64,000 bases of DNA from a bacterium (lineage in GTDB: Bacteria > Omnitrophota > Gorgyraeia > Zapsychrales > Zapsychraceae). A model generated the notes under the pieces. It did not search any database. It was not told the origin of the DNA and saw nothing but the letters and a program-made list of their open reading frames with translations. Each line of letters starts with the position of its first letter. The stretch's first letter is position 1. Of this stretch, positions 5,810 to 22,706 are shown piece by piece. A program made the translations under genes and the position numbers. The stretch is taken from contig JAUIER010000002.1 in NCBI GenBank assembly GCA_030429765.1, positions 42,126 through 106,125 of the forward strand. The letters are read 5' to 3'.

Positions 5810-6160
5810 ATGAAGCTCAAAGATTTAGTCAAAAAACTTCAATACCTGGACCACAAAACCGCCCGCTGGCTGATGCGTCACTTCTACTTCACGTTTTTTC
5901 AGCTGGTCCTTCTGGTTGTCTTTGTGTTCTGGTTTCGAAATCTCCTTGATGTCATCGACATCAGTTTCCACCGCACCGAAGAAACCACCATTGAAGCCTC
6001 GCTTCACAGCATGAATGTCAACTCCACCATCGTCTGCGTGCTACTTCTACTCAATTCATTCTGGATGCTGTACATCCTGAACGCGATGCAGCGTCTAGCC
6101 AATCTCATCAAAGACGTCAGCTACAATATCAATCGTTTGCGCGCTGAGCGTAAACGCTAA
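5810..6160 (+). CDS. Small membrane protein, hypothetical
   Basis: The ATG at 5810 is preceded by AAAGGAG. Two predicted TM helices. The only plus-strand gene in this 20-kb stretch. Confidence 0.5.
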   Translation: MKLKDLVKKLQYLDHKTARWLMRHFYFTFFQLVLLVVFVFWFRNLLDVIDISFHRTEETTIEASLHSMNVNSTIVCVLLLLNSFWMLYILNAMQRLANLIKDVSYNINRLRAERKR

Positions 6161-7399
6161 TCAAAAATATTCCTGGTATATCTCTTTGACCTTACCGATC
6201 ATCCGGTTGCTCCAACCGGTCTTTCCGTCCTGTGTCACACCGTATCGCATTGAATCTGAAAAACCTTTTTGCGCCAAACCAATAGCCGACGAATATAGCG
6301 CGGTATTGGAAACATTCTTGTGATTCAGCCGATTGATCTGCGCCAGCGTTACGGGCATATTAGTGCGCTCTTCAATCAGCTCAATCAAGCCGGGCAGCAG
6401 CGATCCACCGCCGATCATTTTAACACCATGATGTATGTGTCCGTAATAGCCCGAGTCCGTCAGCACCTGATCGATTGCATCTACCAGCTCCAGTATTTCC
6501 TCTTCAATCGCCTCATAAATATCCATACGCCTCACGGGAGTGTACGCCTCTTCCCGCTTCACCAGGATTTCCTCCTCAGGTTCGATCTGTGACGCATTCG
6601 CCGTGGCGTAGGAGCGCTTGATCTCCTCGGCGAGGTCGACCGATAACTTCAAATGCTTCGCGATCCGACACGTGAGACTGTATCCCCCCGACGGGATCGT
6701 TTCCATGTGACGAAGAATGCCGTCCTTAAAAATCAGGACACTTGTAATCTTGGCGCCGATATCTATCATCACAATCCCGCCCTGCTTTTCCTGATCACTC
6801 AGGATCAGGTCGCCGGCGACAAAACTGCTGAAATAAAGCTCCGTCACATCGTAACCGGCATGATTGATCGACTTGAGAATATTTTTGATCCGATCGACAT
6901 TGGACACCAGCATCAATGACTCAACCGCTAACTTGCGGCCGTACAGACCGATGGGATTTGTTGCCGAATTAACATCATCGACTTCATAAATCTGCGGCAT
7001 TTCATGGAGAACTTCTTCTTCCATCCGTACGCCCAGTAGACGCGCCTGCTTGTTGAGGCGACGCAGATCCTTCTCGGCAATCACCTTGTTCCCCCGGTCA
7101 ACCAGCGGAATCGCGGTCGACGATTTGCGCACATCAATCAGACTTCCATCCACGCCGACAAAAAGTTCTTTGCTGCGGATACCGGTCTTATCCGCCAACT
7201 CAGTTAACGCGTGACTGATACATTCCGAGAACTCATTAAGATCGCTGACGGATGAGTTCTTGAACCCATGAACCGCATGTTCAAAGGCGCCTACAATTTC
7301 CGTCGAGGCATCCTTGACCTTAACGACACCGACCTTAAACCGATGCGCGCCCAGATCCAGCCCGCAATAGTATTTATCATTCAGCACTCTGTTTAACAT
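6161..7399 (-). CDS. ftsA: Cell division protein FtsA
   Basis: Actin-fold motifs GLDLG, DIGAKITS and GGGSLLPGL, and a position after ftsQ in the dcw cluster. Confidence 0.9.
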   Translation of the reverse strand: MLNRVLNDKYYCGLDLGAHRFKVGVVKVKDASTEIVGAFEHAVHGFKNSSVSDLNEFSECISHALTELADKTGIRSKELFVGVDGSLIDVRKSSTAIPLVDRGNKVIAEKDLRRLNKQARLLGVRMEEEVLHEMPQIYEVDDVNSATNPIGLYGRKLAVESLMLVSNVDRIKNILKSINHAGYDVTELYFSSFVAGDLILSDQEKQGGIVMIDIGAKITSVLIFKDGILRHMETIPSGGYSLTCRIAKHLKLSVDLAEEIKRSYATANASQIEPEEEILVKREEAYTPVRRMDIYEAIEEEILELVDAIDQVLTDSGYYGHIHHGVKMIGGGSLLPGLIELIEERTNMPVTLAQINRLNHKNVSNTALYSSAIGLAQKGFSDSMRYGVTQDGKTGWSNRMIGKVKEIYQEYF

Positions 7400-7401
7400 A
7401 T

Positions 7402-8166
7402 CTATTTTTTTCCGATGATCGGTTCTTTGAAACGGAGATCAATGTAGTTGACTTCATTGAGATCGAGATTGCCCTGCGTCAGGACGACACCCAACACCTT
7501 GACCTTATAATTGATTTTCTGATCGTCGATGATGGCCTTCACATCTTTGTCCAGATGCAAGAAGATCTTGGATAATTGTCCCACCTCAAGGCGAAGCACC
7601 TGGTACGAAGACAAGGTCGCGTTTTCCCTAAAGGCGCGGATGATTTTCAGCGCTGCCTTGAGCTCCGCCCCTTTAAGCCGCGCACCTAAATTAATACTCG
7701 GATTGGCGAGTTTGAGTCCTTCAATCGCGGGCAAATCTTTATCCGCTTTATCGGATTTATCCAGCACCACGCCCTCATCATCAAGAACCAGAAAACTGTC
7801 CTTGAATAAAAACTGCGCCAGCCGAACCCGCTTTTTGGCCACCAAATGAATCTGGTCCGGAAAACGTTTTTCGACCTTTAGTTCAGATATCTCCGGATAC
7901 TTGGTTAAGAGTGTCCGCTCGACGCTGTTAAGATTCACCTGAAAGATATTTTTGCCGCGCAGATTCATCAGATCATCTTTCTGAATAAACTGGAGGGTTG
8001 GATCAATCACGATCTTCTTGACGGCAAAACGGCGGGAATCCAGCAAATAGTCAGATACGCCTTTATAAAGAAAAACCCCGAGCAGGAACGACGCCGAGAT
8101 GATAAACAGAATAATCGCGATCTTAAAGATCTGCGGCCATATATTTTTTCGCTTTTTTCTTGCCAT
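7402..8166 (-). CDS. ftsQ: Cell division protein FtsQ/DivIB
   Basis: N-terminal basic segment plus a single TM, then POTRA-like and beta domains. Lies between ddl and ftsA. Confidence 0.8.
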   Translation of the reverse strand: MARKKRKNIWPQIFKIAIILFIISASFLLGVFLYKGVSDYLLDSRRFAVKKIVIDPTLQFIQKDDLMNLRGKNIFQVNLNSVERTLLTKYPEISELKVEKRFPDQIHLVAKKRVRLAQFLFKDSFLVLDDEGVVLDKSDKADKDLPAIEGLKLANPSINLGARLKGAELKAALKIIRAFRENATLSSYQVLRLEVGQLSKIFLHLDKDVKAIIDDQKINYKVKVLGVVLTQGNLDLNEVNYIDLRFKEPIIGKK

Positions 8167-9100
8167 AAGCCAATTCAGTTAACGTTAAACACAATTGATC
8201 AAAACTGATCCCTACGTGAGCGGCCGCTTTCGGCAGCAGGCTCGTCTGCGTAAATCCCGGAATGGTATTGATCTCCAGGACATACGGCTTCAAGTTTTCA
8301 TCCAAACGGAAGTCCACCCGCGACAGGTGCTGACAACCAAGAACGGTATGTACCTTGAGCGCCGTTTCCTGCAATAGATGCCGAACCTCTAGCGGGATCT
8401 CCGCCGGGATCACATATCCGGTCTGTCCGGATTGATACTTGGATTTGAAATCAAAGAATTGATTGCCAGGTCGGATCTCAATGACATCCAGAGGTGTTTG
8501 ATCAAGAATCCCGACGGTGACCTCACGACCGTCGATGTAGCGCTCCACCATTATCTCGCGTCCGTAGGCCTTGGCCTCATCAATGGCCGACAGCAATTCA
8601 CCGATATTCTGTACGATGCTGACGCCGATGCTTGACCCCTCACAGGCCGGCTTGACAACCAGCGGAAAACGTTCAAACTGCTCAACCACCGCCTCAATAT
8701 CTACCACCTGCGACATATCCAATACCCGGAATTCCGGCACCACGACATTGTTCTCAATCAGCAGGCTCTGCGTCAGGACTTTATTGAACGCTAGTCGGCT
8801 CGCCTGACAACCGGATCCGGTAAACGGAACGCCTAACTCTTCACAGATCGACTGCACCTGCCCGTCTTCACCGAGCTTGCCGTGTAATGTGATAAAGATC
8901 AAATCCACATTCTTAGAGCAGATCACCTTTTTGATATGTTCATAATCGGGTTCGCGAATATCGATGCCCGTGACTTCCAAGCCCTGAGACCAGAGCGATT
9001 CGTAGACGGCGCTTCCTGACTTCAATGAAATTTTGCGCTCGGTGGAGATCCCTCCCATTAAAACACCGATGCGGCCAATCTTTTTAAACGGTTTACTCAT
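8123..9100 (-). CDS. ddl: D-alanine--D-alanine ligase
   Basis: MSKPFKKIGRIGVLMGGISTERKISLKSG... and an ATP-grasp C-terminal half. The ATG at 9100 was verified and overlaps the murC stop by 8 nt; the track's upstream extension was discarded. Confidence 0.9.
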   Translation of the reverse strand: MSKPFKKIGRIGVLMGGISTERKISLKSGSAVYESLWSQGLEVTGIDIREPDYEHIKKVICSKNVDLIFITLHGKLGEDGQVQSICEELGVPFTGSGCQASRLAFNKVLTQSLLIENNVVVPEFRVLDMSQVVDIEAVVEQFERFPLVVKPACEGSSIGVSIVQNIGELLSAIDEAKAYGREIMVERYIDGREVTVGILDQTPLDVIEIRPGNQFFDFKSKYQSGQTGYVIPAEIPLEVRHLLQETALKVHTVLGCQHLSRVDFRLDENLKPYVLEINTIPGFTQTSLLPKAAAHVGISFDQLCLTLTELAYGKKKAKKYMAADL

Positions 9101-10484
9101 GAACACTCTTGGAATAAGACTGCTGACGGATACGCAGATGTTCGACGATGTCGTACCCGATCCGGTTAATGTCTCCGGCACCGAGGGTAATCACCAGGTC
9201 ACCGGGGGCTACAATTTTTAATACGTGGTTAAGGATGTTCTCTTTTCTTATATACAAAACCGGTTTGTCAGTAAACTTTTGAATATCCTGAACAAATCGC
9301 TGAGCATTGATTTGATCAATCGGATTCTCACTCGCCGCATACACATCCGAGACGATTAAATGGTCGACATCGATCATACTGTCCATAAAATCCCGCCATA
9401 AGGCCTTGAGCCGTGTGTAGCGATGCGGTTGAAACAGTGCGATCACCCGGCCTTCTGAACATTCCTTGGCCGTCTGCAGGGTTGTGGCAATCTCCGTCGG
9501 ATGATGGGCATAGTCGTCGATCACCCGAATATTGTCGACACACCCAAGCTCCTCAAACCGCCGCTGCACCCCCGTATAATTCTGCAGACTTTGACGGATG
9601 ACGTCCATGTCGACACCGATCGTATACCCCAGACAAATACAGGCCAGCGCATTGGCAATATTGTGCCGTCCGGGAACATTCAACAGGATCTCACCCTGAC
9701 GCTGCCCGTCGATCAGACATTCAAATCTCGACTGGTTCCCTTCCTGACGGACATTGATAGCCATCACCAGATCATCGCTGGAGAAACCAAAGGTGACAAA
9801 ACGCCGACCTGATTGCCGGATTAAATCACACATCCGTTTGTCATCTCCAAACGCTATAATCAACCCGTCATCCGCGGTACGGCGAAAATACTTTCCATAA
9901 GCCTCCGCAATATTCTTCCAACTATGATAGTAATCAAGATGTTCAAGATCCATGTTGGTGATAACAGAATAGAACGGTGAAAAATACAGGAAAGATCCGT
10001 CACTCTCATCGACCTCGGCCACAAAATACTTGCCTTGTCCCAGCGCCGCATGTGAATGCTCACCATTGACAATCCCGCCGATGGCCGATGTCGGCTGCAG
10101 CCCCGCAAGGCTCATCATCTGGCCGATCATCGACGTGGTCGTGGTCTTGCCGTGCGCGCCGGCCACAGTAATGGCCTTGTGTTCACGCATAAGCTCCGAC
10201 AATACCTGCGCCCGTTTCAGGGTTGGAATCCGATGTTGTTCCGCCGCGGCAAGCTCACAGTTAGAACCTGAAATCGCCGACGAGTAAACGACGACATCGG
10301 CATTCATCACATTTGCCGCATCGTGTCCGATCACAATCCGAGCCCCTTTATTTCGCAATCGTCGCACCATCGGATTCTCTCTGACATCGGAGCCTCCGAC
10401 AGAATAGCCTTTATCCAGCAGCAACGATGCGATCGTTCCCATTCCAATGCCGCCAATTCCGATTAAGTGGTAGTGTTTAGTCAT
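9093..10484 (-). CDS. murC: UDP-N-acetylmuramate--L-alanine ligase
   Basis: HLIGIGGIGMGTIA..., GAHGKTTTTSM and the Mur ligase fold. ATG at 10484; the track's first M at 10490 is a TTG. Confidence 0.9.
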   Translation of the reverse strand: MTKHYHLIGIGGIGMGTIASLLLDKGYSVGGSDVRENPMVRRLRNKGARIVIGHDAANVMNADVVVYSSAISGSNCELAAAEQHRIPTLKRAQVLSELMREHKAITVAGAHGKTTTTSMIGQMMSLAGLQPTSAIGGIVNGEHSHAALGQGKYFVAEVDESDGSFLYFSPFYSVITNMDLEHLDYYHSWKNIAEAYGKYFRRTADDGLIIAFGDDKRMCDLIRQSGRRFVTFGFSSDDLVMAINVRQEGNQSRFECLIDGQRQGEILLNVPGRHNIANALACICLGYTIGVDMDVIRQSLQNYTGVQRRFEELGCVDNIRVIDDYAHHPTEIATTLQTAKECSEGRVIALFQPHRYTRLKALWRDFMDSMIDVDHLIVSDVYAASENPIDQINAQRFVQDIQKFTDKPVLYIRKENILNHVLKIVAPGDLVITLGAGDINRIGYDIVEHLRIRQQSYSKSVHE

Positions 10485-11250
10485 CTTCAAGAAATTTCAC
10501 CCAGGCCTTGTTCAGGCGTTCAATATTTTTATACCGGACATAAATCGAATCCAACGCCCACTCAAATGGTTTGCCGTCCTTGAGCTTTCGGCAAAAACGG
10601 ACAAATTTGTTTGTACCGTGTTCATTGATCAAAAACTTTACCGCACTGGCCGACTCGGCATAAAATAATTCAATCCCCTTCTTGCTCATGCCACGGTGGG
10701 GACGCATCAATGTCAACTGCTCAAGCGGTATAAACTTATCCGCCTTGATGGCTTCACGGACGAGATCATGCGATCCGAAACGACGGGCGCGCTCGACGTA
10801 CATAGCCACCCCTTCCTCAAACCATAATGGAACATCGGCGTTGTATCCGACAAATTCCCGAAAAATAATATGGCCCAATTCGTGCGGTAACGTCGAATCA
10901 AAAAATCCATGCGCGGTTGGAAATGTGCGAATCGTCCGCTCCGTCGGTGACGCCGATCCATGTGACCATCTGGCCTGCCGTCCCGCCGTGACGTAATCTT
11001 CGGAGCTGTCGTAGATATAAATCTTGACCCTGTTCTTGTAAGCCCAGGACTTGGTCCGTCGAAAACCCAGATCCTTGATGATACTGTCGTAATACTCTTC
11101 AGTGGCCTTCTCAACGGCATCAACAAAATCCTTGGGAGCTTCATTGTAGAAAATCTGGACATGACGGCCGCTGCGCTCCGTCCAGTCCGCAGCCAACGCG
11201 CTTGTTCCCAACATCGCGGTCGTGATGATACCCCCTATCAAAGTTGTCAC
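10477..11250 (-). CDS. Secreted zinc metallopeptidase, gluzincin / Peptidase_MA-like (HExxH...E)
   Basis: Signal peptide MTTLIGGIITTAMLGTSALA. HELGH is followed after 18 residues by WFEEG, the gluzincin spacing. Inserted between murG and murC, with 4-8 nt overlaps on both sides. Confidence 0.65.
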   Translation of the reverse strand: MTTLIGGIITTAMLGTSALAADWTERSGRHVQIFYNEAPKDFVDAVEKATEEYYDSIIKDLGFRRTKSWAYKNRVKIYIYDSSEDYVTAGRQARWSHGSASPTERTIRTFPTAHGFFDSTLPHELGHIIFREFVGYNADVPLWFEEGVAMYVERARRFGSHDLVREAIKADKFIPLEQLTLMRPHRGMSKKGIELFYAESASAVKFLINEHGTNKFVRFCRKLKDGKPFEWALDSIYVRYKNIERLNKAWVKFLEDD

Positions 11251-12329
11251 GATTCGTGGTGTAATTGCAGTAGCTCCTGTGTCAGTCGTTGTGTTGAGGT
11301 TTGAATGTACAATTCAGCTTCGACTCGGGCAAAGTCATCCGATTTCGGCCGGCCGTTGATCCGTTCGCAAACTGTGTCAGCCAGTCGTTGCGGCGTTAGC
11401 TCTGACTGATCAATGAGACAGCCTAACGATGCATCTGCCACAACCCGGGCATTTTCCCGCTGATGCCCTCCCGCATAAGGATAGGGGATCAAGATAGACG
11501 GACAACGAAAATGAACTAATTCCAAGATTGTTGACGCCCCGGCCCGGCAAACCACTAGATCGCTCGCCGACATTAACTCCTGTAAAGGCCGGTAAAATTC
11601 ATGAACGACCGCTCGAACGTCCGCCTGCTGATACCGTTCGGCGATCCCGTGCGACTTCCCTCGTCCGGTCAAATGGATAACTTGATAATCAATTCGGCCC
11701 TTGATTATTTCGCACGCTTCCGAAAATGTCTCATTGATAATTTGACTGCCTTGACTGCCACCGAAAACCAGAATGGTCGTCTTATCGGGAACGAGACCTA
11801 AGGATTCTAAAATCTGACCTTTCGGACGTACCGACGGCAATGTCGCAATCGGACATCCAGTGACTACTGTCGGCTTACCGATAAAATGTTTCTCTGACGG
11901 TTTAAAGCTCAATGCAATCTTGGAGACCCGGTTCTTCAGCATCCGGTTGGCCCGTCCCGGCACGACATTTTGCTCGTGAATCAGTGTTGGTAACCGCAAC
12001 AAACTCGCCGCGTATACCACGGGAAAGGCTCCATATCCGCCAAAGCCGGCGACGCATTGCGGCGCGATGTTTTTTAAACGCCGCAGACTTACGATTATCG
12101 CAACAACTAGTGAGCAGGCCGCCCGGCAATCTTTCCAAAACCCGTCTCGCTGTAAACCGCGGGCGTTAAGCTCGATCGATTCTAAACCAGCCGCCGCAAT
12201 TTCCTTTGACGCGACGCTGAAACTTCCCATCAGGACCACTTCATGACCAAGCCGCTTGAGTTCCATCCCAACCTGTAGCGCCGGAAACAAGTGACCGGCC
12301 GTTCCGCCCGCCGCTAACACCACCTTCAT
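11247..12329 (-). CDS. murG: UDP-GlcNAc:MurNAc-pentapeptide-PP-undecaprenol GlcNAc transferase
   Basis: MKVVLAAGGTAGHLFPAL..., a GT28 fold, and the dcw position. Confidence 0.9.
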   Translation of the reverse strand: MKVVLAAGGTAGHLFPALQVGMELKRLGHEVVLMGSFSVASKEIAAAGLESIELNARGLQRDGFWKDCRAACSLVVAIIVSLRRLKNIAPQCVAGFGGYGAFPVVYAASLLRLPTLIHEQNVVPGRANRMLKNRVSKIALSFKPSEKHFIGKPTVVTGCPIATLPSVRPKGQILESLGLVPDKTTILVFGGSQGSQIINETFSEACEIIKGRIDYQVIHLTGRGKSHGIAERYQQADVRAVVHEFYRPLQELMSASDLVVCRAGASTILELVHFRCPSILIPYPYAGGHQRENARVVADASLGCLIDQSELTPQRLADTVCERINGRPKSDDFARVEAELYIQTSTQRLTQELLQLHHES

Positions 12330-13414
12330 AAATCTTCTATCCGGGAAATATTAAGTAACAGTCCAATCGACACCATATGAAAAACAAGCGCGGATCCGCC
12401 ATAGCTGATAAATGGCAAAGGCAACCCTTTGGTTGGAAACGCGCCGATGCTCACACCGATATTAACGACCGCCTGAAGTCCGATCATCGACACAATACCC
12501 AGGGCTAAGAAATACCCAAACGGATCTGTAGTCCGCTTGGTAATGCGCGCTCCCTGCCAAATCAGGGCCATAAACAGGAAGACTGTCACAATAGTTCCGA
12601 TAAGTCCGAGCTCTTCACCGATAATCGAGAGAATAAAATCCGTATGGGCCGCCGGCAGATAAAACAGCTTCTGCATGCTCTGCCCGAGTCCCACGCCGAA
12701 CACGCCCCCCGAACCCAGGGCAATCTGGGATTGGGATAGTTGAAAACCCACCCCCTGACTATCTTTCCAGGGATCCAAAAAGGCGATGATACGTCGCATC
12801 CGGTACGGCTCGCTCAGAACCAGATAGACCAGTAATGGAACGGCCATCGCCACCAGCCCCCCTAGATACATCAATCGGGTTCCAGCGACATACATCATAA
12901 TAAAAACTATCGACGCGATCAGGACCGAACTACCTAAATCCGGCTGTTTGACAATGAGCAAGCATACACTCCCCATTATAATCAATAACGGCAAAAATCC
13001 TTGTACAAATTTAGTTATTTTTCCCTGTTTTCTCGCCAAGAAGTCCGCTGTGTAGATCATAATCGAAAGCTTGGCAAATTCTGAAGGCTGAAAGCTGATC
13101 GGCCCCAGCTTAAACCACCGCCGCGCCCCAAAACTGGAAGTTCCAACACCGGGAATCAGTACCAGGGCGAGCATCACAAACGATGCGATCATCAACGGCT
13201 TGGCCCATTTTCTTAGATGCCGATAATCCATAGACATGACCAGAAACGTCATAATCGTACCGATGCCCAGAAAAACCAGATGACGGCCGATAAAATACGT
13301 CCGGCTGCCCAAACGTTCAGAGGCATACACGCCGCTGGATGAATAGATCATCACAATACCCAGACAGATCAGGCAGGTGACAATACTCGCCACCGAAATT
13401 CGCAAATTACGCAT
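12326..13414 (-). CDS. ftsW: SEDS-family lipid II flippase/polymerase FtsW
   Basis: 10-TM SEDS protein located between murD and murG. Confidence 0.88.
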   Translation of the reverse strand: MRNLRISVASIVTCLICLGIVMIYSSSGVYASERLGSRTYFIGRHLVFLGIGTIMTFLVMSMDYRHLRKWAKPLMIASFVMLALVLIPGVGTSSFGARRWFKLGPISFQPSEFAKLSIMIYTADFLARKQGKITKFVQGFLPLLIIMGSVCLLIVKQPDLGSSVLIASIVFIMMYVAGTRLMYLGGLVAMAVPLLVYLVLSEPYRMRRIIAFLDPWKDSQGVGFQLSQSQIALGSGGVFGVGLGQSMQKLFYLPAAHTDFILSIIGEELGLIGTIVTVFLFMALIWQGARITKRTTDPFGYFLALGIVSMIGLQAVVNIGVSIGAFPTKGLPLPFISYGGSALVFHMVSIGLLLNISRIEDL

Positions 13415-14729
13415 GACTCTCCACCTTCAAAGCATTGACAAGCGACTTGAAAACCCTTCCGCGCTCCTCGTAATCCCGGAACATATCGAAACTCGCGCAC
13501 ATCGGACTGAACAAAACCGTATCTCCCGCTTTCGCCTGCTGCTGCGCAAACCGCACGGCTTCGTCCAGCGAATCGCATTCCGTGATCGGACAAACCGACT
13601 CCAACGCCTGTCGAATCTTGGCACGGGCTTCACCAATCAGGATCAGATGATCCACACGTTCGGCAACCAGATCACGGATGACCGAATAATCCATATTCTT
13701 ATCCCGCCCCCCGCAAATAAACAGCAACGGTGCAGGTGTTTGATTCAAGGCCCACCGGCCGGCCTCCGCCGTCGTGGATTTGGAATCATTGATATACTTG
13801 ACCCCGTCTATATTCCGGACAAATTCCAACCGATGCTCCACGCCCTTGAAATCCTTCAATACTTTCTCGAAATACGATCGATCGATCTTTAAGATATCCA
13901 TGACTTCATGGATCGCCAAAAAATTGGGATTCAAATCTCCGGATGAATCCCCTTTGCCACTGTTACCGCCAAACGGACGCACTTGCGATTTCAATGTATC
14001 TCCAAACGTCTTGATCCGTGGGTTTGCGGTATTCAACACAGCATAGTCACTGGCTTCCTGATTGATAAACAACCGAGCCTTGGCAAAAAAATACTCATCC
14101 ATATCTCGATGTCTATCCAGATGATTTTGACTAAAGTTTAATAAAACGCCGATCATTGGCCGGAATCCACGAACATAACCTCGCCGACGGTCCGGATTAT
14201 ATTCGGCTAAAACAGATTCCATTTGAAAAGAGCTTACCTCCAGCACAACATAATCACAACCGGCTAGATCCTGACACGCCTCGGAGAACGGCAATCCTAT
14301 ATTTCCGCACAATCGAGATTTATATCCCGCCGCTGTTAATGTCTGGTGAATTAACGTGCTTACTGTGGTTTTGCCATTGCTTCCGGTCACCGCGATAATC
14401 GGAACATCACAAAACTCCGATGCAAATTCAACCTCACCCATCACCGTTATGAGCATCCCGGTCACCCACTGGATCACTCGAGAATCCAATCGAACCCCCG
14501 GACTGATGACCACATAGTCACTTCCTCGGATAAACTCGGGAGAATGCCCATTGTGCTCCAATTCAACCTGATGCTCGTTCAGCCATTCCAAATCCGTCGA
14601 CGCAATGCTGGCCTCAGGCCCACCATGTGAAATTCTCGCAACTCCTCCATTCTGTACCACCAATCGAGCCAAGGCCAAACCACTCCGTTGGGCACCGAGA
14701 ATCGTCACTTTTTTCTGATGGATGTTCAT
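13407..14729 (-). CDS. murD: UDP-N-acetylmuramoylalanine--D-glutamate ligase
   Basis: MNIHQKKVTILGAQRSGLALARL..., GSNGKTT and the Mur ligase C-terminus. The ATG at 14729 was verified; the track extension overlaps mraY. Confidence 0.9.
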   Translation of the reverse strand: MNIHQKKVTILGAQRSGLALARLVVQNGGVARISHGGPEASIASTDLEWLNEHQVELEHNGHSPEFIRGSDYVVISPGVRLDSRVIQWVTGMLITVMGEVEFASEFCDVPIIAVTGSNGKTTVSTLIHQTLTAAGYKSRLCGNIGLPFSEACQDLAGCDYVVLEVSSFQMESVLAEYNPDRRRGYVRGFRPMIGVLLNFSQNHLDRHRDMDEYFFAKARLFINQEASDYAVLNTANPRIKTFGDTLKSQVRPFGGNSGKGDSSGDLNPNFLAIHEVMDILKIDRSYFEKVLKDFKGVEHRLEFVRNIDGVKYINDSKSTTAEAGRWALNQTPAPLLFICGGRDKNMDYSVIRDLVAERVDHLILIGEARAKIRQALESVCPITECDSLDEAVRFAQQQAKAGDTVLFSPMCASFDMFRDYEERGRVFKSLVNALKVESHA

Positions 14730-14734
14730 ATCAA

Positions 14735-15820
14735 TTACCTGATCTTTAAGGTTGTTAAGGCCAGCATGGCCATGATGACCGCGAGGATCCAGAATCGAAT
14801 GATAATCTTGGATTCCGCCCAACCGGACATCTGAAGATGATGATGAAACGGCGCGATCTTAAAAATACGCCGTCCGAACACACGGAATGAAAACACCTGC
14901 AGGATCACAGAGACCGCCTCAATCACAAAAACGCCCCCGATAATAACGAGCAATAATTCTTTCTTGATCATCACGGCAATCACACCCAGTGTACCGCCCA
15001 ATGAAAGTGATCCTGTATCGCCCATAAACACTGAGGCCGGCGGACAATTAAACCACAAAAACCCCAGGCTTGCCCCGACGATAGCGGCGCAAAATACCGT
15101 CAACTCTCCCACCCCAGCGATGTACGGTATAAATAAGTAACTACTGAAATTCAAATGTCCCGTGATATAGCACAGAATAGACAAGGTCAGACTCACCACC
15201 AAAATACACCCAATGGCCAATCCATCCAAACCGTCCGTGAGATTCACCGCGTTCGACGTTCCGATCACAACCATCGCCACGAACGGGATATACCACAACC
15301 CGATATTCAAGACCACATCCTTAAAAAACGGAAAGTCCACCAGTGTCGATGTATCAGGGTTAAAGTAAACATATGACCCGATAAATCCGCCTAGTAGAAT
15401 CTGCCACAGCAGCTTGCTTCGTTTGCCCAGGCCGCGCTTGCCGATCCCCTTGAGTTTGCGATAATCGTCGACCCAACCCAACACGGCCAGATAAAAACTC
15501 GTCAACAACGCGATCAACACATAGCGGTTGGTCAAATCTCCCCACAACAGGACGGAGAATATGATACTCCCGACGATAAACAGACCTCCCATCGTCGGGG
15601 TTCCCTCTTTGGCTGATTGAAATTGGTCCAGATCAGGACAGTCATCCCGCTTGGCGACTTCCCCGATCTTCATTGCGCGGAGCTTGCGGATAAAAATCGG
15701 TCCAAGGATGACGCACAACAAGAAGGTCGTGATGGCGGCCATTCCCGTGCGAAATGTGATGTAGCGAAATATATTAAATCCGAAATAAACGTCGCGAAGC
15801 TCTGAAAGAAAGTAAAACAT
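14735..15820 (-). CDS. mraY: Phospho-N-acetylmuramoyl-pentapeptide transferase
   Basis: Polytopic protein with the MraY motifs NxxNxxDGxDGL and VFMGDTGS. Confidence 0.92.
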   Translation of the reverse strand: MFYFLSELRDVYFGFNIFRYITFRTGMAAITTFLLCVILGPIFIRKLRAMKIGEVAKRDDCPDLDQFQSAKEGTPTMGGLFIVGSIIFSVLLWGDLTNRYVLIALLTSFYLAVLGWVDDYRKLKGIGKRGLGKRSKLLWQILLGGFIGSYVYFNPDTSTLVDFPFFKDVVLNIGLWYIPFVAMVVIGTSNAVNLTDGLDGLAIGCILVVSLTLSILCYITGHLNFSSYLFIPYIAGVGELTVFCAAIVGASLGFLWFNCPPASVFMGDTGSLSLGGTLGVIAVMIKKELLLVIIGGVFVIEAVSVILQVFSFRVFGRRIFKIAPFHHHLQMSGWAESKIIIRFWILAVIMAMLALTTLKIR

Positions 15821-15822
15821 GT

Positions 15823-17193
15823 TTAGGCCATGACCTTTGATTGGATCGCGTTGACCACCTTTTCCATATGCATGGATCGCGATCCCTTGACTAGAATAAA
15901 ATCGCCCGCTTTCACATCATCCAGCAGACACGCAATTAAATCTTCGTGTGCGTCAAAGTGGCGGACATGCTTTCCGTCCACGGATTTCAACTCATCGGCG
16001 ATTACCGCCGTGAACTGGCCCAATGTGTATACATAATCAATATCGGAGGCGCGGATTTGCCCTGCTACCTGACGATGAAAAAACTCTGACTGTTCTCCCA
16101 GCTCCAGCATATCTCCGCATACAAATATCTTGCGGCCGCTGACCTGAAACCGTTTGGCTAAATCAATCGACGCCTCAACCGACAACGGATTGGCATTGTA
16201 TGAATCATCGCATACCCAAATATCGCCGCATCGATTTATGTTTCCGCGATTGTCATCCAGACGAAATTCAAGTAAGCGATCCTTAATCGTATTATAGTCC
16301 AGCCCGAAGAGGGCTCCACAACAAATTCCGATTAATGCATTGTAAATTTGATGCCTCCCAAGTGCTTTGAGCACATACTGTTTGGAATCAACCTGGAAAC
16401 AAAGTGCGGCCGGATTTTCGGATTCCAGGGGTACCGCCTGAGTGTCTGATTCGTTGCGGATTGAATAACTCACATACTGGATGTGTGACGTTGACCGGCT
16501 TGGAAGACGTTTAAGATACGAGTCGTCCGCATTGTAGACGACCGTCCCGTTTGACCTTAAGAAATCCACCAGCGTGGATTTTTCCTGATAAACACCGTCT
16601 CTGTCCTTTAGGCCCTGCAAATGAGAATCCCCGATGTTCGTAAATACGGCCACCGTGGGCTCAGCGATCTCAGCCAGCCACCCAATGTCACCTGGCTGAT
16701 TGGTGCCAAGTTCCAGGACCGCGATCTCATGGTCTGGCCTCATCTGAAAAATCGTCAGCGGCACGCCGATCCAATTGTTCAAGGAACGTTCATTCTTGAG
16801 CACCTTGTACCGCGCGCTCAATACGTGGGCCAACAAATTCTTGACCGTCGTCTTGCCGGCACTGCCCGTGATTGCGATTACCGGGATATCAAATTTCCGA
16901 CGATACTGCCGCGCCATCTCACCCAACGCCCGGACGGTATCATCAACCCGCAGCACCACGACCTTTTCGGCAACGACAGGGATCTCCCGCGAAACCATGA
17001 CGGCAGAAGCCCCCTGCTGTATCGCTTCATTCACAAATTTGTGCCCGTCGTGAACAGCCCCTTTGATCGCCACATACATCGATCCGGGCTGGATAGTCCT
17101 GGAATCAATTGAGACATTGGAAACAGGGACATTGTCCGCCCCCTGCAAAAAACTGGCCTGTGTGGCTGAAATAATTTCTGGAATGGTTAACAT
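15823..17193 (-). CDS. murF: UDP-MurNAc-tripeptide--D-Ala-D-Ala ligase
   Basis: Mur ligase family, GSAGKTT, located between murE and mraY. Confidence 0.9.
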   Translation of the reverse strand: MLTIPEIISATQASFLQGADNVPVSNVSIDSRTIQPGSMYVAIKGAVHDGHKFVNEAIQQGASAVMVSREIPVVAEKVVVLRVDDTVRALGEMARQYRRKFDIPVIAITGSAGKTTVKNLLAHVLSARYKVLKNERSLNNWIGVPLTIFQMRPDHEIAVLELGTNQPGDIGWLAEIAEPTVAVFTNIGDSHLQGLKDRDGVYQEKSTLVDFLRSNGTVVYNADDSYLKRLPSRSTSHIQYVSYSIRNESDTQAVPLESENPAALCFQVDSKQYVLKALGRHQIYNALIGICCGALFGLDYNTIKDRLLEFRLDDNRGNINRCGDIWVCDDSYNANPLSVEASIDLAKRFQVSGRKIFVCGDMLELGEQSEFFHRQVAGQIRASDIDYVYTLGQFTAVIADELKSVDGKHVRHFDAHEDLIACLLDDVKAGDFILVKGSRSMHMEKVVNAIQSKVMA

Positions 17194-18641
17194 CTAAGCA
17201 GCTGCTGAATGATTTTACGTTCATCAAATCTGATCGTTCGATCGCGAAAGATCTGATAATCTTCGTGACCTTTACCGGCGACGAGCACGACATCTCCGCG
17301 CCGGGCCATCTTAAGCGCCTGATCAATCGCCCGCTCACGGTCCACGACAACGGTGTAGTGTTCCCCCTCAAAACCCTCCACGATCTCATCTATAATTGTT
17401 CGAGGATCTTCGCTGCGGGGGTTATCGCTGGTGATAAAACTAAAATCCGCGAGTTGACTCGCCACCTGCGCCATCGCCGGCCGCTTGCTCCGGTCGCGAT
17501 CGCCACCACAACCGAAGACCAAAATGATCTTGGCGTCCGTGGTTTTTCGGATGGTGGTGAGCACATTAAACAGCGCGTCCTGGGTATGGGCATAGTCAAT
17601 GATCACCGAGAAATCCTGCTGACACTCCACGGGCTGCAATCGACCGGGGACAAAATCCAGATACTCAATCCCTTTACGTATCTTCTCGAGATTGACCCCC
17701 TCGTTCAGACAAATCCCGACTGCTGCCAGAATATTGTAGACATTATAATCACCCACCAAATTTGTGCGGATCACAGCGTTGCCTTCCGGTGTAACCAGCT
17801 TAAACTTGGTCCCGCTCATATCCAGCTCAATATCCCTGGCCATGATATCCGCATTCTTTCGAACGCCGTACGTCACAATCCTCGACGACGTGCGAGCGAA
17901 AAGCTTACGTCCGTAATCGTCATCCACATTGATAACTGACAGCGCGTCCGATGACAACCCCGAAAACAATTTGGCCTTGGCCTCAAAATAATTCTGATGT
18001 GTCAGATGATAATCCAGATGGTCGGTGGTCAAATTGGTAAAGGCCGCCGAGCGGTAATCGATCAAATCAACCCGGTTCTGGTCCAGGGCATGCGACGACA
18101 CCTCCATAATACAATACTCCACGTCATCCTTGACCAAATCGGACAGCAGCTTCTGATTATCCAAAAAACCGGGAGTTGTATTCTGCGCGGGAATCAACCG
18201 TTCACCAATCCGGTAATTGACGGTGCCGATCACACCACAACTGTGCTCGGCCTCATGCAAAATCGATTCCACCAGGTAGGCAATCGTTGTCTTGCCGTTG
18301 GTTCCGGTAATGCCGATCACCTTAATGTGATCGGAGGGCCGACCGTAAAACTTCGCCGCCGTCTCCCGCATCAATCCGGCCGGCGATTCGGTTTCGATAA
18401 AGCAAACTTCAGGATATCGGAATTTATCTCGAAACTGATGGGCGGCCACCGCGACAGCGCCGCGGGCAATCGCCTCGTCAATAAATTCGTTCCCATCAAA
18501 TGTCCCGCCGGGCAGCGCGAAAAACAGACAGCCGGCATCGGCTTTTCGAGAATCGCAACACAATGAAGCAATGGAAAGATGCTGAAATGTGGGATCGATT
18601 AATGGGCATAAGGATTCGTTGAGCAGGTCATATAGTTGCAT
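17187..18641 (-). CDS. murE: UDP-MurNAc-L-Ala-D-Glu--2,6-diaminopimelate ligase
   Basis: GITGTNGKTT. The DNPR motif (ITSDNPRSEDP) indicates meso-DAP specificity. Confidence 0.9.
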   Translation of the reverse strand: MQLYDLLNESLCPLIDPTFQHLSIASLCCDSRKADAGCLFFALPGGTFDGNEFIDEAIARGAVAVAAHQFRDKFRYPEVCFIETESPAGLMRETAAKFYGRPSDHIKVIGITGTNGKTTIAYLVESILHEAEHSCGVIGTVNYRIGERLIPAQNTTPGFLDNQKLLSDLVKDDVEYCIMEVSSHALDQNRVDLIDYRSAAFTNLTTDHLDYHLTHQNYFEAKAKLFSGLSSDALSVINVDDDYGRKLFARTSSRIVTYGVRKNADIMARDIELDMSGTKFKLVTPEGNAVIRTNLVGDYNVYNILAAVGICLNEGVNLEKIRKGIEYLDFVPGRLQPVECQQDFSVIIDYAHTQDALFNVLTTIRKTTDAKIILVFGCGGDRDRSKRPAMAQVASQLADFSFITSDNPRSEDPRTIIDEIVEGFEGEHYTVVVDRERAIDQALKMARRGDVVLVAGKGHEDYQIFRDRTIRFDERKIIQQLLRC

Positions 18642-18644
18642 AGT

Positions 18645-20339
18645 CTAATTTTTGAGTTTAGCGGTTGTAACGGATTCAAGATACTTAAGCGAATTTTCAA
18701 TGACTTCTTTAGCCACAGGGGCCGAAACCGTCCCGCCGAAGTAGCTCGGAGTCGGTTCATCATAAATGACCACGCAGGCTAGTTTGGCATCTTCAGCCGG
18801 TGCGAAGGCATAAAACGACGCATAAAAGTGATCATGCGAATATGTTCCGTCGACTACTTTCTGCGCGGTGCCGGTCTTGCCACCGACCTTGACCCCCTCG
18901 ATTTGCGCACGCCGGGCGGTGCCTGTATCCACCACGCCGACGAGAATATCCCGTACCCGATGGGCCGTCTCCTCCGATATCACGCGGCTGACGATCTCCG
19001 GATCACTCCGCCGAATAACCTGATCTTTCTTGTCTTTGACAAATTTGAGAATGTGCGGCCGCATATACAGACCGTCATTGGCGATCACCGATATCGCGGC
19101 CACCAATTGAATCGGGGTCACCGTGACTTCATGCCCCATTGGAATCGCGCTAATCGTTGTCTTGGACCATTGCGACGGCTTTTTCAGCCAACCATCCACC
19201 TCCCCGCGCAATTCGATATTGGTCGGATCCCCAAACCGAAAACGGCGCCCGTAGTCATACACCACGTCCGCGCCCAATTCCTGGGCAATCTTAGCGACGC
19301 CAATATTACTGGAGAGCTCAAAAACCCGGCGAAATGATAACGTCCCATGCGGACGGTGATCATGCAGGGTATGATTGGCAATGCGATATTTCCCATTTTC
19401 ACAGAATATTTCATCGGTTTCAACAAACTTTTTTTCTTCCAGCGCGGCGGCGGCCGTGACAATTTTAAATACTGATCCCGGCTCGTAAACGAAGCTGATG
19501 GCCCGGTTTGTACGGCTTTCCACACTGCTTTGTGACACCGTTTCCAGGTTATATGTCGGCCGGTTGGCCAGTGCCAGGATTTCGCCTGACTTGGGATCCA
19601 TGACGATGATAGTCCCCGCCTTGGCCTTGTATTTCTGATACGCCCTGTCCAGCGCCCGTTCGGCAATGTACTGAATCGTTTCATCGATGGTCAGGACGAT
19701 ATCCTTGCCATGTTGTGGTGCGATAAAACTCTTTTCCAGGAGCAGCTCACGCTGCTTGGCATCGCGGACAAATAAGGCCTTGCCCGGCGCGCCACGCAGA
19801 TATTCGTCGAAAACCAATTCTGCCCCTTCAAGACCACGGTTATCAATATCGGCGAAGCCGATCACATGTGACGCCAGCTGACCGTTAGGATAAAACCGCT
19901 TGCTTTCTTCAATAAACGACAACCCCGGAATATTTTCGTCACGGATACGGTTAGCGATATCCAGCGGAAGCTTTCGCTTGATCCAGACAAAATACTTATC
20001 GCGGGATAGCCTCTCGCGGACCAGTTCCCGATCCACCCCCGCGATCACCGGCAGAAACTCGAGCGCCTGTGCCTTGGCCTTGTCGGACATCATCCGCGGA
20101 TTAGCGTACAACGAATGGACCGTCACATTAATGGCCAACGGACGCATGTTACGGTCGTAAATCGTTCCGCGCAGCGGCTCGAGTTCGATCAAACGATTAT
20201 GCTGCTTTTTGGCAAGACTGGCCAGATGGTCCGACTTGAAAACCTGGATCAGCACCAGTTTGACAATAAACACGCACAGACAGATGATCAAAAACAGAAA
20301 GACACTGCTGAACCTAAGGTCGTATTTTCGATTTTGCAC
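18645..20339 (-). CDS. ftsI: Penicillin-binding protein 3 / FtsI transpeptidase
   Basis: N-terminal TM, SxxK (SVFK), SxN (SSN) and KTG (KTGTAQ) motifs. GTG start at 20339. Confidence 0.9.
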   Translation of the reverse strand: MQNRKYDLRFSSVFLFLIICLCVFIVKLVLIQVFKSDHLASLAKKQHNRLIELEPLRGTIYDRNMRPLAINVTVHSLYANPRMMSDKAKAQALEFLPVIAGVDRELVRERLSRDKYFVWIKRKLPLDIANRIRDENIPGLSFIEESKRFYPNGQLASHVIGFADIDNRGLEGAELVFDEYLRGAPGKALFVRDAKQRELLLEKSFIAPQHGKDIVLTIDETIQYIAERALDRAYQKYKAKAGTIIVMDPKSGEILALANRPTYNLETVSQSSVESRTNRAISFVYEPGSVFKIVTAAAALEEKKFVETDEIFCENGKYRIANHTLHDHRPHGTLSFRRVFELSSNIGVAKIAQELGADVVYDYGRRFRFGDPTNIELRGEVDGWLKKPSQWSKTTISAIPMGHEVTVTPIQLVAAISVIANDGLYMRPHILKFVKDKKDQVIRRSDPEIVSRVISEETAHRVRDILVGVVDTGTARRAQIEGVKVGGKTGTAQKVVDGTYSHDHFYASFYAFAPAEDAKLACVVIYDEPTPSYFGGTVSAPVAKEVIENSLKYLESVTTAKLKN

Positions 20340-20373
20340 TTCGTTCGATTATGTTGATGGCGGATAAGATCGA

Positions 20374-20754
20374 TTACTGATCTTTGGCTTCCGCACGCGT
20401 TGTGAATGACAACAAACTCAGCAGTGATCCCTTGGCGGAATTGGATGGGTCGTCGCCGTTTGGCGGATCATCGCTCTTGATGGTTTCGGTAGCGGAAATA
20501 TGCATAATGTCACTGGGATCAACAAACTGCATGTCGGACTCATCGTCAAGCATCTCAATTCCCAGGTTTTCGGCCGATTTCAGCGACAGGATCTCATAGC
20601 TCAGATATTCTTTTTCCTGAACGAGCTGATCGATCTTTTTTTCGTTGTCCTTACCCTGATAGGCCAGATCAAAAATCTGCATCTGCATGTGAATATAGCC
20701 CAATGACAGGCCCGTTAGCAGCATCATAAATTTTAAAAAGTTACAAAATCTCAT
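20374..20754 (-). CDS. ftsL: Cell division protein FtsL-like (septum formation initiator)
   Basis: 126 aa with an N-terminal TM and a coiled-coil segment. Its ATG forms an ATGA overlap with the rsmH stop. Canonical position between rsmH and ftsI. Confidence 0.65.
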   Translation of the reverse strand: MRFCNFLKFMMLLTGLSLGYIHMQMQIFDLAYQGKDNEKKIDQLVQEKEYLSYEILSLKSAENLGIEMLDDESDMQFVDPSDIMHISATETIKSDDPPNGDDPSNSAKGSLLSLLSFTTRAEAKDQ

Positions 20755-21683
20755 ACATTCCTCTCGAGAACCCTGAACCTGGCGCTCCGGGCCCGCGGAT
20801 TGATCTCAACCTCTTCATCGGTCGGACGGATCGGTTTTTTAACCAGCGGCTCAACGATACCGGCCCGCTGGAACATCTTAAACTTATTTTTAACGATACG
20901 GTCTTCCAGTGAGTGAAACGAAATAATTCCCAAGCGTCCTTTCGGCCGCAGGTGTGACACACATTTATCGATCACAATATCCAACGTTTCCAGCTCATGA
21001 TTCACCGCAATACGAAACGCCTGGAAGGTCCGTGTCGCCGGATGCAGCCGCTGCGGCTTGCCATGAAACGGTACCGACCGAACAACTATATCTGAAAGCT
21101 CATCCGTATTTTCAATCGGACGTTTGGACCGTTCGGAGACAATCCCCCGGGCAATCCGTCCGGCCCATCGCTCTTCTCCAAACTCCTTGAGAATCGCGGC
21201 AATCTCTTTTTCCGACAATGAGTTCACCAGATCATAGGCTGAAATCGCGGCATTCTGATCCATCCGCATGTCCAGCGGCCCCGATGATCTAAGACTAAAT
21301 CCTCGTCGAGGATTATCAAGCTGAAAACTTGAGATCCCCAAATCCAGCAGAATTCCGTCGACTTTCTGAATATTCAAATCCGCCAGCACTTCATCGATGT
21401 ATCGAAAATCTTTATGAACAAAGTGACATTGATGAGCGAATTCCTGCAGCCGTTCGCGCGCAATAGATAAGGACTGCTCATCCCGGTCCATACCGACAAG
21501 CAGTCCTTTAGATCCTATTTTCTCCAAAATCCGGATGGAATGTCCGGCCATCCCCAATGTCCCGTCAACGAAAACTTCATTTTCCTTCGGCGCCAGGTAA
21601 CTCAACACCTCCTCGACCATGACGGGGAGATGTTGATATGGATCAATTTTGTCCGCGGGGGTCATCATAATATTTTTGATCAT
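20751..21683 (-). CDS. rsmH: 16S rRNA (cytosine1402-N4)-methyltransferase RsmH/MraW
   Basis: ...VDGTLGMAGHS..., LLDLGISSFQLD and a SAM-MTase fold. Confidence 0.92.
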   Translation of the reverse strand: MIKNIMMTPADKIDPYQHLPVMVEEVLSYLAPKENEVFVDGTLGMAGHSIRILEKIGSKGLLVGMDRDEQSLSIARERLQEFAHQCHFVHKDFRYIDEVLADLNIQKVDGILLDLGISSFQLDNPRRGFSLRSSGPLDMRMDQNAAISAYDLVNSLSEKEIAAILKEFGEERWAGRIARGIVSERSKRPIENTDELSDIVVRSVPFHGKPQRLHPATRTFQAFRIAVNHELETLDIVIDKCVSHLRPKGRLGIISFHSLEDRIVKNKFKMFQRAGIVEPLVKKPIRPTDEEVEINPRARSARFRVLERNV

Positions 21684-21702
21684 TAAGATCTCCGACGACT
21701 AC

Positions 21703-21966
21703 TCAGCCCGCATAGCAATGGACGCTATGCTGCATTTTAGCCAAGTTGAATTTTTCCCGAATGATCTGGAAATCCTGTTCCTCTTTGAGCTCATCCCACG
21801 TATCTTTGATTCGGTTTCGGATGTAAATCCGGTCCCTTTCTTCAAACACCAGGAAAAGCTCAGTCCTTCCGGTTGACGTATCCACAGTGGAACAGAACAA
21901 ACAATCACAGTTGGGCAATTCAATTAAGTGCTGAAATACAATACATTGCGCGTGAAATTGTTCCAT
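21703..21966 (-). CDS. Small cysteine-containing hypothetical protein inserted between mraZ and rsmH
   Basis: The ATG at 21966 is preceded by AGGGAG. 87 aa containing C8, CxCxxC (C20/C22/C25) and C84. Confidence 0.4.
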   Translation of the reverse strand: MEQFHAQCIVFQHLIELPNCDCLFCSTVDTSTGRTELFLVFEERDRIYIRNRIKDTWDELKEEQDFQIIREKFNLAKMQHSVHCYAG

Positions 21967-22006
21967 GTTGGACTCCCTTTTACCAATTATTTGATAGACT
22001 CAAACC

Positions 22007-22444
22007 TTAATTGCTGAAAATATTTTCCGCGATCTCTTCAAACGACTCATTTGATGCGTTATAGAAATTTTTCCATCGTTTCTTGTCCCAGATTTCAATC
22101 CGGTTGGATACGCCGATCACGACGGTCTCCCGATCAATACCCGAGAAATCCTTGAGATACGATGGTATAATAAAACGTCCCTGTTTATCAGGTTTTACAT
22201 CGGTGGCGCCGGCAAAAAACATACGGTTAAAATTTCGTGATTCCTGACGGGTAAACGACATGCTTTTGAACTTTTGTTCCTGGGAACGCCATTCGTCTTC
22301 GGCAAACATGAAAATACACTTATCAAGACCACGTGTTAAGAAAAATCGATCAATCGCGCATTCTTTGCAGGTGTCTCGAAACTTTGAAGGTAAAATCAAT
22401 CGCCCTTTGGGGTCAATATTATGCTCAAATTCACCGTAAAACAT
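22007..22444 (-). CDS. mraZ: Transcriptional regulator MraZ
   Basis: Duplicated MraZ/SpoVT-AbrB-like halves (MFYGEFEHNIDPKGRLILP... and ...DKQGRFIIP...). First gene of the dcw cluster. Confidence 0.92.
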   Translation of the reverse strand: MFYGEFEHNIDPKGRLILPSKFRDTCKECAIDRFFLTRGLDKCIFMFAEDEWRSQEQKFKSMSFTRQESRNFNRMFFAGATDVKPDKQGRFIIPSYLKDFSGIDRETVVIGVSNRIEIWDKKRWKNFYNASNESFEEIAENIFSN

Positions 22445-22460
22445 TCGCCGCCTTTATTGG

Positions 22461-22498
22461 ACCACTTTGCACCACTTTCCACCACTTTTGAACCATTC
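22461..22498 (-). promoter_or_regulatory. Three (plus a degenerate fourth) direct repeats AAAGTGGT at exact 10-bp phasing, MraZ-box-like operator in the mraZ leader
   Basis: The plus strand reads accactttgc accactttcc accacttttg aaccattcta. On the coding strand this is AAAGTGGTGG AAAGTGGTGC AAAGTGGTCC. E. coli MraZ binds GTGGG-type repeats with the same 10-bp periodicity at Pmra. Confidence 0.55.
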
Positions 22499-22524
22499 TA
22501 CCCCCCCAATCAGGGACTGTCAAC
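22495..22524 (-). promoter_or_regulatory. Sigma-70-type promoter for mraZ: TTGACA, 18-nt spacer, TAGAAT
   Basis: On the minus strand, -35 TTGACA is at 22524-22519 and -10 TAGAAT at 22500-22495. An AAGG RBS lies about 7 nt before the ATG. Confidence 0.5.
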
Positions 22525-22672: not shown

Positions 22673-22706
22673 TTTTTGAAAGGGATCAGATTTGGCGGGA
22701 AAAAAG

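Follow-up and report, generated by a model that had tools for sequence, protein, structure and literature searches.

In Escherichia coli the dcw cluster, of genes for division and for the cell wall, runs mraZ-rsmH-ftsL-ftsI-murE-murF-mraY-murD-ftsW-murG-murC-ddlB-ftsQ-ftsA-ftsZ-lpxC. How bacteria divide without FtsZ has been posed as an open question (Rivas-Marin 2016), and work on FtsZ-independent division has centred on the Chlamydiota and the Planctomycetota, both of which are also without FtsA. Here we describe a dcw operon that keeps the E. coli gene order from mraZ to ftsA and that has no ftsZ. It lies on the minus strand, from position 22444 down to 6161, of a 64-kb stretch of contig JAUIER010000002.1 (the window; positions count from its first letter) and consists of 16 tightly packed open reading frames (ORFs), identified with Pfam and NCBIfam, in the order mraZ-orf87-rsmH-ftsL-ftsI-murE-murF-mraY-murD-ftsW-murG-peptidase-murC-ddl-ftsQ-ftsA. 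We regard it with good confidence as an ordinary, vertically inherited dcw operon of the Omnitrophota that carries three lineage-specific differences. The ftsZ gene is probably missing from the operon because the whole phylum lacks it, and not because it has been relocated. A metallopeptidase (hereafter PEP) would be translationally coupled to both murG and murC, between which it is encoded. The third difference is o116, a small gene for a protein with two transmembrane segments, known only from Omnitrophota, which converges on the 3' end of ftsA. As we picture it, the cell would divide on an FtsA-anchored divisome (FtsA, FtsQ, FtsL, FtsW, FtsI and FtsK) with no Z-ring, synthesis of PEP would keep pace with that of the late enzymes for peptidoglycan precursors, and once in the periplasm PEP might cleave a peptide or protein associated with the envelope or with division.

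The genes of the operon, and the gene that converges on its last member, are the following.

22007-22444, minus strand: mraZ (PF02381, E=2e-37)
21703-21966, minus strand: orf87 (87 aa), between mraZ and rsmH, of no known family
20751-21683, minus strand: rsmH (mraW; PF01795, E=3e-107)
20374-20754, minus strand: ftsL-like gene, by its position after rsmH; conserved in relatives; TIGR02209 at E=0.006, below the cutoff, and no Pfam match
18645-20339, minus strand: ftsI, a class B penicillin-binding protein (PBP_dimer and Transpeptidase domains)
17187-18641, minus strand: murE (three Mur ligase domains; assigned by position)
15823-17193, minus strand: murF (three Mur ligase domains; assigned by position)
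14735-15820, minus strand: mraY (Glycos_transf_4 and MraY_sig1)
13407-14729, minus strand: murD (Mur ligase domains and MurD_N)
12326-13414, minus strand: ftsW (FTSW_RODA_SPOVE, E=3e-116)
11247-12329, minus strand: murG (N- and C-terminal Glyco_transf_28 domains)
10477-11250, minus strand: PEP, a predicted gluzincin metallopeptidase (PF13485 Peptidase_MA_2, 63.7 bits against a cutoff of 32.4)
9093-10484, minus strand: murC (Mur ligase domains alone, with no fusion to murB or ddl)
8123-9100, minus strand: ddl (Dala_Dala_lig_N and Dala_Dala_lig_C)
7402-8166, minus strand: ftsQ (POTRA_1 and FtsQ_DivIB_C, with an N-terminal transmembrane (TM) segment)
6161-7399, minus strand: ftsA (TIGR01174, 222.3 bits against a cutoff of 175.85; SHS2_FTSA, E=4.5e-13)
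5810-6160, plus strand: o116 (116 aa, two TM segments), converging on ftsA

Likely starts for murC (10484, ATG), ddl (9100) and murD (14729, ATG) replace those of the ORF finder, which lie too far upstream; murD had been extended to 14822, and its start was set at 14729 because the ortholog alignments begin at residue 32. The TGA of murG and the GTG start of PEP share GTGA, an overlap of 4 nt, the TAA of PEP and the ATG of murC share ATGACTAA, an overlap of 8 nt, and the murC stop and the ddl start (ATGAGTAA) overlap likewise by 8 nt. A first-pass annotation made from the letters of the window had proposed this gene order and these identities, an overlap of PEP with each neighbour by 4-8 nt, and a cluster that ends at ftsA and is followed by a convergent small membrane ORF and a response regulator; the ORFs, the Pfam and NCBIfam assignments and the junctions (4 nt with murG, 8 nt with murC) bear all of this out. 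Its view that the lack of murB departs from the canonical cluster does not hold. MurB gave no significant tblastn match and no Pfam domain in the window, and the reference cluster of E. coli is likewise without murB, so that its absence from the cluster is no anomaly; murB lies inside the dcw cluster in some lineages and outside it in E. coli, and is not a defining feature. In the part of the Omnitrophota tables of Seymour 2023 that is used here, TIGR00179 (murB) is listed as often as ftsA and murC, and murB would therefore lie at another locus.

Within positions 4800-23000 the best sigma-70 match is TTGACA-17 nt-TAGAAT (22495-22523, minus strand), which agrees at 11 of 12 positions, lies upstream of mraZ and is likely to be the operon promoter. 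Between its -10 box and the mraZ ATG (22461-22485, minus strand) GTGGT occurs as three direct repeats of 10-bp period, a putative site which we take to resemble the MraZ operator of E. coli. A single promoter upstream of mraZ, with MraZ-box-like repeats, probably serves the operon.

By the sequences of its proteins, the host is an uncultured Candidatus Omnitrophota bacterium, of a phylum from which no isolate is known. PEP has 45 orthologs in metagenome-assembled genomes (MAGs), at 42-66% identity. Most carry the label Omnitrophota; the minority filed under Planctomycetales or Lysobacterales have the same synteny, and the NCBI names of PEP and o116 homologs likewise point to Omnitrophota. In all 45 peptidase-seeded loci, where their extent suffices, murG-PEP-murC-ddl-ftsQ-ftsA is followed by the convergent o116, usually with the response regulator next and often with a small ORF of one TM segment and a class V aminotransferase gene. 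Because this first set was seeded on the peptidase, a second scan, of JGI metagenomes, was seeded on FtsA, with a query alignment made of Omnitrophota sequences only. It yielded 46 further loci, none with ftsZ, and PEP was found at 18 of the 20 murG|murC junctions covered. The insertion, which the first-pass annotation asked to be looked for in relatives, is present in both sets. At the two remaining junctions, in loci L054 (1656-4176) and L074 (879-3379), murG is followed directly by murC after gaps of 118 and 90 nt, with no peptidase; both loci keep ftsA and the convergent o116. Altogether the arrangement recurs in about 90 related loci whose proteins are 30-78% identical, and as far as sequence comparison goes this recurrence is more than chance; the locus counts are not fully independent, because the two sets have some sequences in common.

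The sequence probably comes from a MAG, a kind of genome that can hold chimeras, and faulty assembly or binning might be suspected, for example a chimeric contig joined after ftsA. Against this, the ftsA|o116|response-regulator junction is present in 64 loci from many independent assemblies (some of them duplicates), and the region is uniform in GC content and in GC skew. We attach practically no probability to an artefact.

Absence of ftsZ and the retained FtsA

With E. coli FtsZ as the query, no significant tblastn match was obtained in the window, and among the large ORFs of the window Pfam recognised housekeeping genes, RodZ and FtsK and no FtsZ or MurB domain. The FtsZ probe had been validated against E. 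coli FtsZ (808 bits) and archaeal FtsZ (285 bits), and the MurB probe was validated as well. Across the two sets, 71 loci reach the 3' end of ftsA, 57 of them with at least 1.5 kb of downstream sequence, and ftsZ follows ftsA in none of the 71. Moreover, no FtsZ or MurB was detected at E<=0.1 in the 1.17 Mb of loci plus the window, and no tubulin signature motif in 0.86 Mb, comprising the window and loci L001-L053.

These observations agree with published surveys. According to Supplementary Note 1 of Seymour 2023, a study of 421 Omnitrophota genomes, the Omnitrophota are without ftsZ, one copy excepted. In its marker-gene comparison of species representatives ftsZ occurs once, is 89% identical to an archaeal protein, and is attributed by those authors to bin contamination or a very recent transfer from archaea. 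Among the rows considered here of the TIGRFAM table in that study, TIGR00065 (ftsZ) is listed 0 times, compared with three listings each for ftsA, murB and murC and two for murG. Pende 2021 lists FtsZ as absent from Omnitrophica; it is missing in four of five genomes, and FtsA is present in three of those four. The fifth genome, OLB16, is also the sole FtsZ-positive "Omnitrophica" in Rivas-Marin 2016, and in the NCBI classification it now belongs to Candidatus Hinthialibacterota and not to Omnitrophota. From these surveys we conclude that the phylum as a whole has lost ftsZ, a trait that is already in print. The idea of an FtsZ-less lineage, put forward in the first-pass annotation, is supported by Seymour 2023, by Pende 2021 and by the reclassification of OLB16; the lineage is no discovery, because the two surveys already report the trait. 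Supplementary Note 1 of Seymour 2023 also reports ftsY (the signal recognition particle receptor) and ribosomal protein L30 to be absent lineage-wide, and TIGR00064 is listed 0 times in the table rows considered.

The FtsA of the operon is genuine, scoring above the equivalog cutoff and possessing the SHS2 insert and a conserved C-terminal tail. The 32 orthologs compared all end in -EYF after a near-invariant ELYQ; in the window the tail reads ...KVKEIYQEYF. By its sequence this tail presumably resembles the membrane-targeting helix of E. coli FtsA. An unusual, PilM-like FtsA was also considered, from a phosphate-2 motif DxGAxxT in place of DIGGGT, and was dropped, as the FtsA of Staphylococcus aureus has DIGEDVT.

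The site on FtsA that receives the C-terminal peptide of FtsZ comprises residues 294-304, in subdomain 2B (PMC10769210). Aligned to E. coli FtsA (7Q6D), the window FtsA has Glu at the position of E. coli R300. In the 32 Omnitrophota FtsA sequences this position is occupied by E (9 sequences), V (5), R (4), Q (3), D (3) or other residues (8), and the E303 position is equally variable. The equivalents of R300 and E303 fall inside the FtsZ-tail site and are not conserved in Omnitrophota FtsA; the pattern IE[AP]R..E is kept in five FtsZ-bearing species (E. coli, Vibrio, Xenorhabdus, S. aureus and Bacillus subtilis), and the neighbouring 2B hairpin EEILVKR is strongly conserved in Omnitrophota FtsA. 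Such a pattern would fit a protein that has been freed from holding FtsZ and is still under selection; given so small a control set, the argument is no more than suggestive.

An ftsZ gene elsewhere in the genome would allow normal Z-ring division and leave the cluster merely truncated. This explanation draws on the near-universal occurrence of FtsZ in bacteria, on the retention of FtsA, the usual membrane tether of FtsZ, with its conserved C-terminal tail, and on a 2025 paper in which Omnitrophota are grouped with phyla of 'highly conserved' dcw genes (PMC12283558). It is opposed by the surveys, with one archaeal-like copy in Seymour 2023 and none in the four genuine Omnitrophica genomes of Pende 2021, by the removal of OLB16 from the phylum, by the lack of conservation of the FtsA residues for the FtsZ tail, and by the absence of FtsZ from the 64-kb window and from 1.17 Mb of related loci. 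We consider it very unlikely that ftsZ has simply moved.

The peptidase between murG and murC

PEP carries the motif H123-E-L-G-H127, followed after 18 residues by E146 within WFEEG. The first-pass annotation had read HELGH-x18-E at 10477-11250 and had pointed to Peptidase_MA_2 (PF13485); both the motif and, with a match well above the cutoff, the family are confirmed. About 58 positions are invariant in 22 orthologs, the four residues H123, E124, H127 and E146 among them, which indicates strong selection on PEP and is silent on the process it serves. A signal peptide, likewise predicted beforehand, is probable. Most of the 22 orthologs have classic MK...AxA leaders with an n-h-c pattern, and in the window copy a hydrophobic h-region and an ALA-AD site can be seen; it lacks a basic n-region, its own being uncharged, and the call therefore rests mainly on the orthologs.

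PEP consists of one domain, and of its 257 aa about 235 would remain in the mature form. Its AlphaFold2 model has a pLDDT of 85.6 and a pTM of 0.81, and its best Foldseek matches are the peptidase domains of M9 collagenases (E=3e-6, TM 0.62-0.67), with M1 aminopeptidases and LTA4H after them. In the structure table the values are 17.0 for a Vibrio-type collagenase, 13.4 for ColT, 13.2 for M30 lugdulysin, 10-12 for M1 enzymes and 7.4 for thermolysin. As modelled, PEP has the thermolysin-like catalytic fold of the clan MA(E) gluzincins, and its fold appears closest to that of M9 collagenase. When a profile of the peptidase alignment was searched against the PDB, nothing was found at E<=1, and NCBIfam gave only a sub-threshold flagellinolysin match for PEP. 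We hold it to be highly likely that PEP is an active, exported zinc endopeptidase.

All of the best 120 PEP homologs pass the PF13485 gathering threshold, and the dcw-embedded subgroup of Peptidase_MA_2 was found only in Omnitrophota-type loci. Two distant homologs have neighbours of other kinds. On a Latescibacterota chromosome (L046, 8031-10873) a homolog of 28% identity directly follows two SPFH/Band7 genes, and in Zixibacteria a homolog adjoins a lipid A acyltransferase gene. As clues to function these contexts were set aside, since they give no consistent hint; the order of SPFH/Band7 and peptidase genes in the Latescibacterota locus recalls membrane-protease regulator modules. A full-text literature search found no published characterisation of any PF13485 member, and a literature search found no published description of a dcw metallopeptidase between murG and murC.

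That the role of PEP concerns the cell wall or division, as the first-pass annotation had suggested, is plausible from its context, and we put the chances for and against as about equal. One more specific form of this idea is a peptidoglycan hydrolase that cuts septal stem peptides or cross-links and replaces amidase/LytM systems. It would be in keeping with the fixed place of the gene between murG and murC and its translational coupling to both, and with a product that is apparently exported and has invariant catalytic residues. Furthermore, AmiA and NlpD were undetected in Omnitrophica, and EnvC in proteomes of the Planctomycetes-Verrucomicrobia-Chlamydiae (PVC) group bar one probable false positive (Rivas-Marin 2016), in a survey of few and incomplete genomes. 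The nearest folds by the model, M9, M30 and M1, cut ordinary L-peptide bonds, no LysM, SPOR or PG_binding domain is present, and two lineages have no PEP at the slot. On balance we think such a hydrolase unlikely, and are equally hesitant to name peptidoglycan stem peptides as the direct substrate of PEP.

Alternatively, PEP could be a passenger, a general periplasmic protease kept in place by inertia since early in the history of the phylum, with no role in wall or division. The unrelated contexts of the distant homologs in Latescibacterota and Zixibacteria, the loss of PEP from the junction in L054 and L074 and the lack of a wall-linking domain are all consistent with this. It is harder to reconcile with a slot that has stayed constant even as the proteins encoded on either side drifted apart to 35-55% identity, with stop and start codons whose overlap implies expression tightly matched to murG and murC, and with the strong selection to which the roughly 58 invariant positions in 22 orthologs point. 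We therefore hold the passenger explanation to be possible, if doubtful.

Several points count against the reading of the operon as an ordinary Omnitrophota dcw operon that serves division without FtsZ and includes a peptidase of the envelope. For the operon itself, co-transcription was inferred from gene packing. For ftsZ, the absence rests on two published surveys and on local synteny; the 2025 paper that calls Omnitrophota dcw genes 'highly conserved' gives no per-gene detail, and its supplements have no Omnitrophota rows (PMC12283558). The retention of FtsA and of its conserved tail is what the presence of FtsZ would predict, and the comparison at R300 and E303 has five species as controls and concerns subdomain 2B, which is generally the more variable part of FtsA. 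For PEP, L054 and L074 indicate that it is not indispensable at the murG|murC slot, since both are without it; Pfam found no peptidoglycan-binding domain (LysM, SPOR or PG_binding) in the protein, no known peptidoglycan hydrolase is among the structural matches listed for it, and distant Peptidase_MA_2 members, at 22-31% identity, are not tied to dcw genes.

Carrying the preferred reading of a vertically inherited, FtsZ-less operon further, one can imagine FtsA as a cytoplasmic scaffold that works without FtsZ, PEP as a septal protease of envelope remodelling or cell separation, and o116 as a membrane partner or regulator. We offer this combination as a tentative proposal with little confidence in it.

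Neighbouring genes and the remainder of the window

The stop codons of o116 and ftsA abut in the window, with a gap of 0 nt, and o116 has a strong Shine-Dalgarno sequence. It has 64 syntenic orthologs, with a 3' overlap with ftsA of 4 nt in 16 loci and a median gap of 20 nt. The family comprises 442 homologs, every named one of which is from Omnitrophota and none of which has a Pfam domain, and the gene takes the place that ftsZ has in the cluster of E. coli. There is no room for a terminator between ftsA and o116, and read-through from the dcw operon would therefore be antisense to o116. Two further genes lie beyond it.

5331-5711, minus strand: single-domain response regulator (PF00072, E=6e-24), a conserved downstream neighbour
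5039-5359, minus strand: o106, a small ORF with one TM segment that follows the response regulator; by tblastn its synteny extends to many relatives; no Pfam or NCBIfam match

The response regulator gene and o116 diverge from a 98-nt spacer. A class V aminotransferase gene (3576-4856), the response regulator gene and the ORF with one TM segment are syntenic in many Omnitrophota loci.

Near the other end of the operon, a narrow clade holds all 17 homologs of orf87; their identity ranges over 43-100%, with conservation otherwise given as 43-63%, and the gene is found at the same position in the loci checked, L101 and L102. Its product has several Cys near the N-terminus and matches neither an NCBIfam model nor, above threshold, a Pfam family. 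Judged by its homologs, orf87 is a real gene.

Two more morphogenesis and division genes are encoded about 25 kb from the dcw operon, where rodZ (HTH_25 and RodZ_C) is located directly downstream of ftsK (46445-49874, minus strand), with a 50-nt overlap of the ORFs. At 57057-58298 (minus strand) a ParA/MinD-type ATPase (AAA_31, ParA, MipZ) is fused to a C-terminal AMPK1_CBM/CBM48 module, and such a combination of an ATPase of this type with a glycogen/starch-binding module is unusual. Additional ORFs have no assigned family, namely four around cinA (248, 458, 237 and 465 aa; 35479-40239, plus strand) with no Pfam match and one of 734 aa (53959-56163, minus strand) with neither a Pfam nor an NCBIfam match. 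GC content falls to about 0.425 at 52-54 kb and at 58-60 kb.

Comparison with known systems

Among characterised peptidases, PEP shares with the M9 collagenases (Vibrio VhaC and the Grimontia enzyme; clostridial ColG, ColH and ColT) the zinc ligands of HExxH and a downstream Glu. In contrast to these enzymes, it consists of a bare catalytic domain with no activator, PKD or collagen-binding domain, is only 12-17% identical to them, and scores 15.9 bits for Peptidase_M9, below the cutoff of 26. The M1 aminopeptidases (PepN, LTA4H, ERAP1) have the same HExxH-x18-E spacing, and the WFEEG of PEP resembles their WLNEG. PEP differs from them in possessing neither the GxMEN exopeptidase motif nor an N-terminal beta domain or a C-terminal helical domain, and the M1 family is absent among its Pfam matches.

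At the level of the operon, the likeness to the E. coli dcw cluster extends beyond gene order, since in both murB lies outside, three short direct repeats accompany the promoter upstream of mraZ, and stop and start codons overlap. The operon described here differs in having no ftsZ or lpxC after ftsA, in two extra genes, orf87 and that of PEP, and in a convergent gene for a protein with two TM segments that abuts ftsA. Three of its features appear to be undescribed, namely the operon peptidase, the Omnitrophota-specific gene abutting ftsA, and the relaxed FtsZ-contact residues in FtsA.

With Chlamydiota and Planctomycetota the lineage shares the lack of ftsZ, and like Chlamydiota and some Planctomycetota it keeps peptidoglycan synthesis genes. 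Omnitrophota have been reported as members of the PVC group that are also without ribosomal protein L30 (Seymour 2023, Pende 2021), and the divergence of division in Chlamydiota and Planctomycetota has been related to fragmentation of the dcw cluster (PMC12283558, its reference 16). Chlamydiota and Planctomycetota have also lost ftsA, whereas here ftsA, ftsQ, ftsL, ftsW and ftsI are found together in one intact operon. Omnitrophota thus represent a third and different case, in which FtsZ is absent, FtsA is kept, the operon is intact in E. coli order and two lineage-specific genes have joined it. This operon is a reasonable starting point for the study of FtsZ-independent division, with PEP, o116 and FtsA as the candidates.

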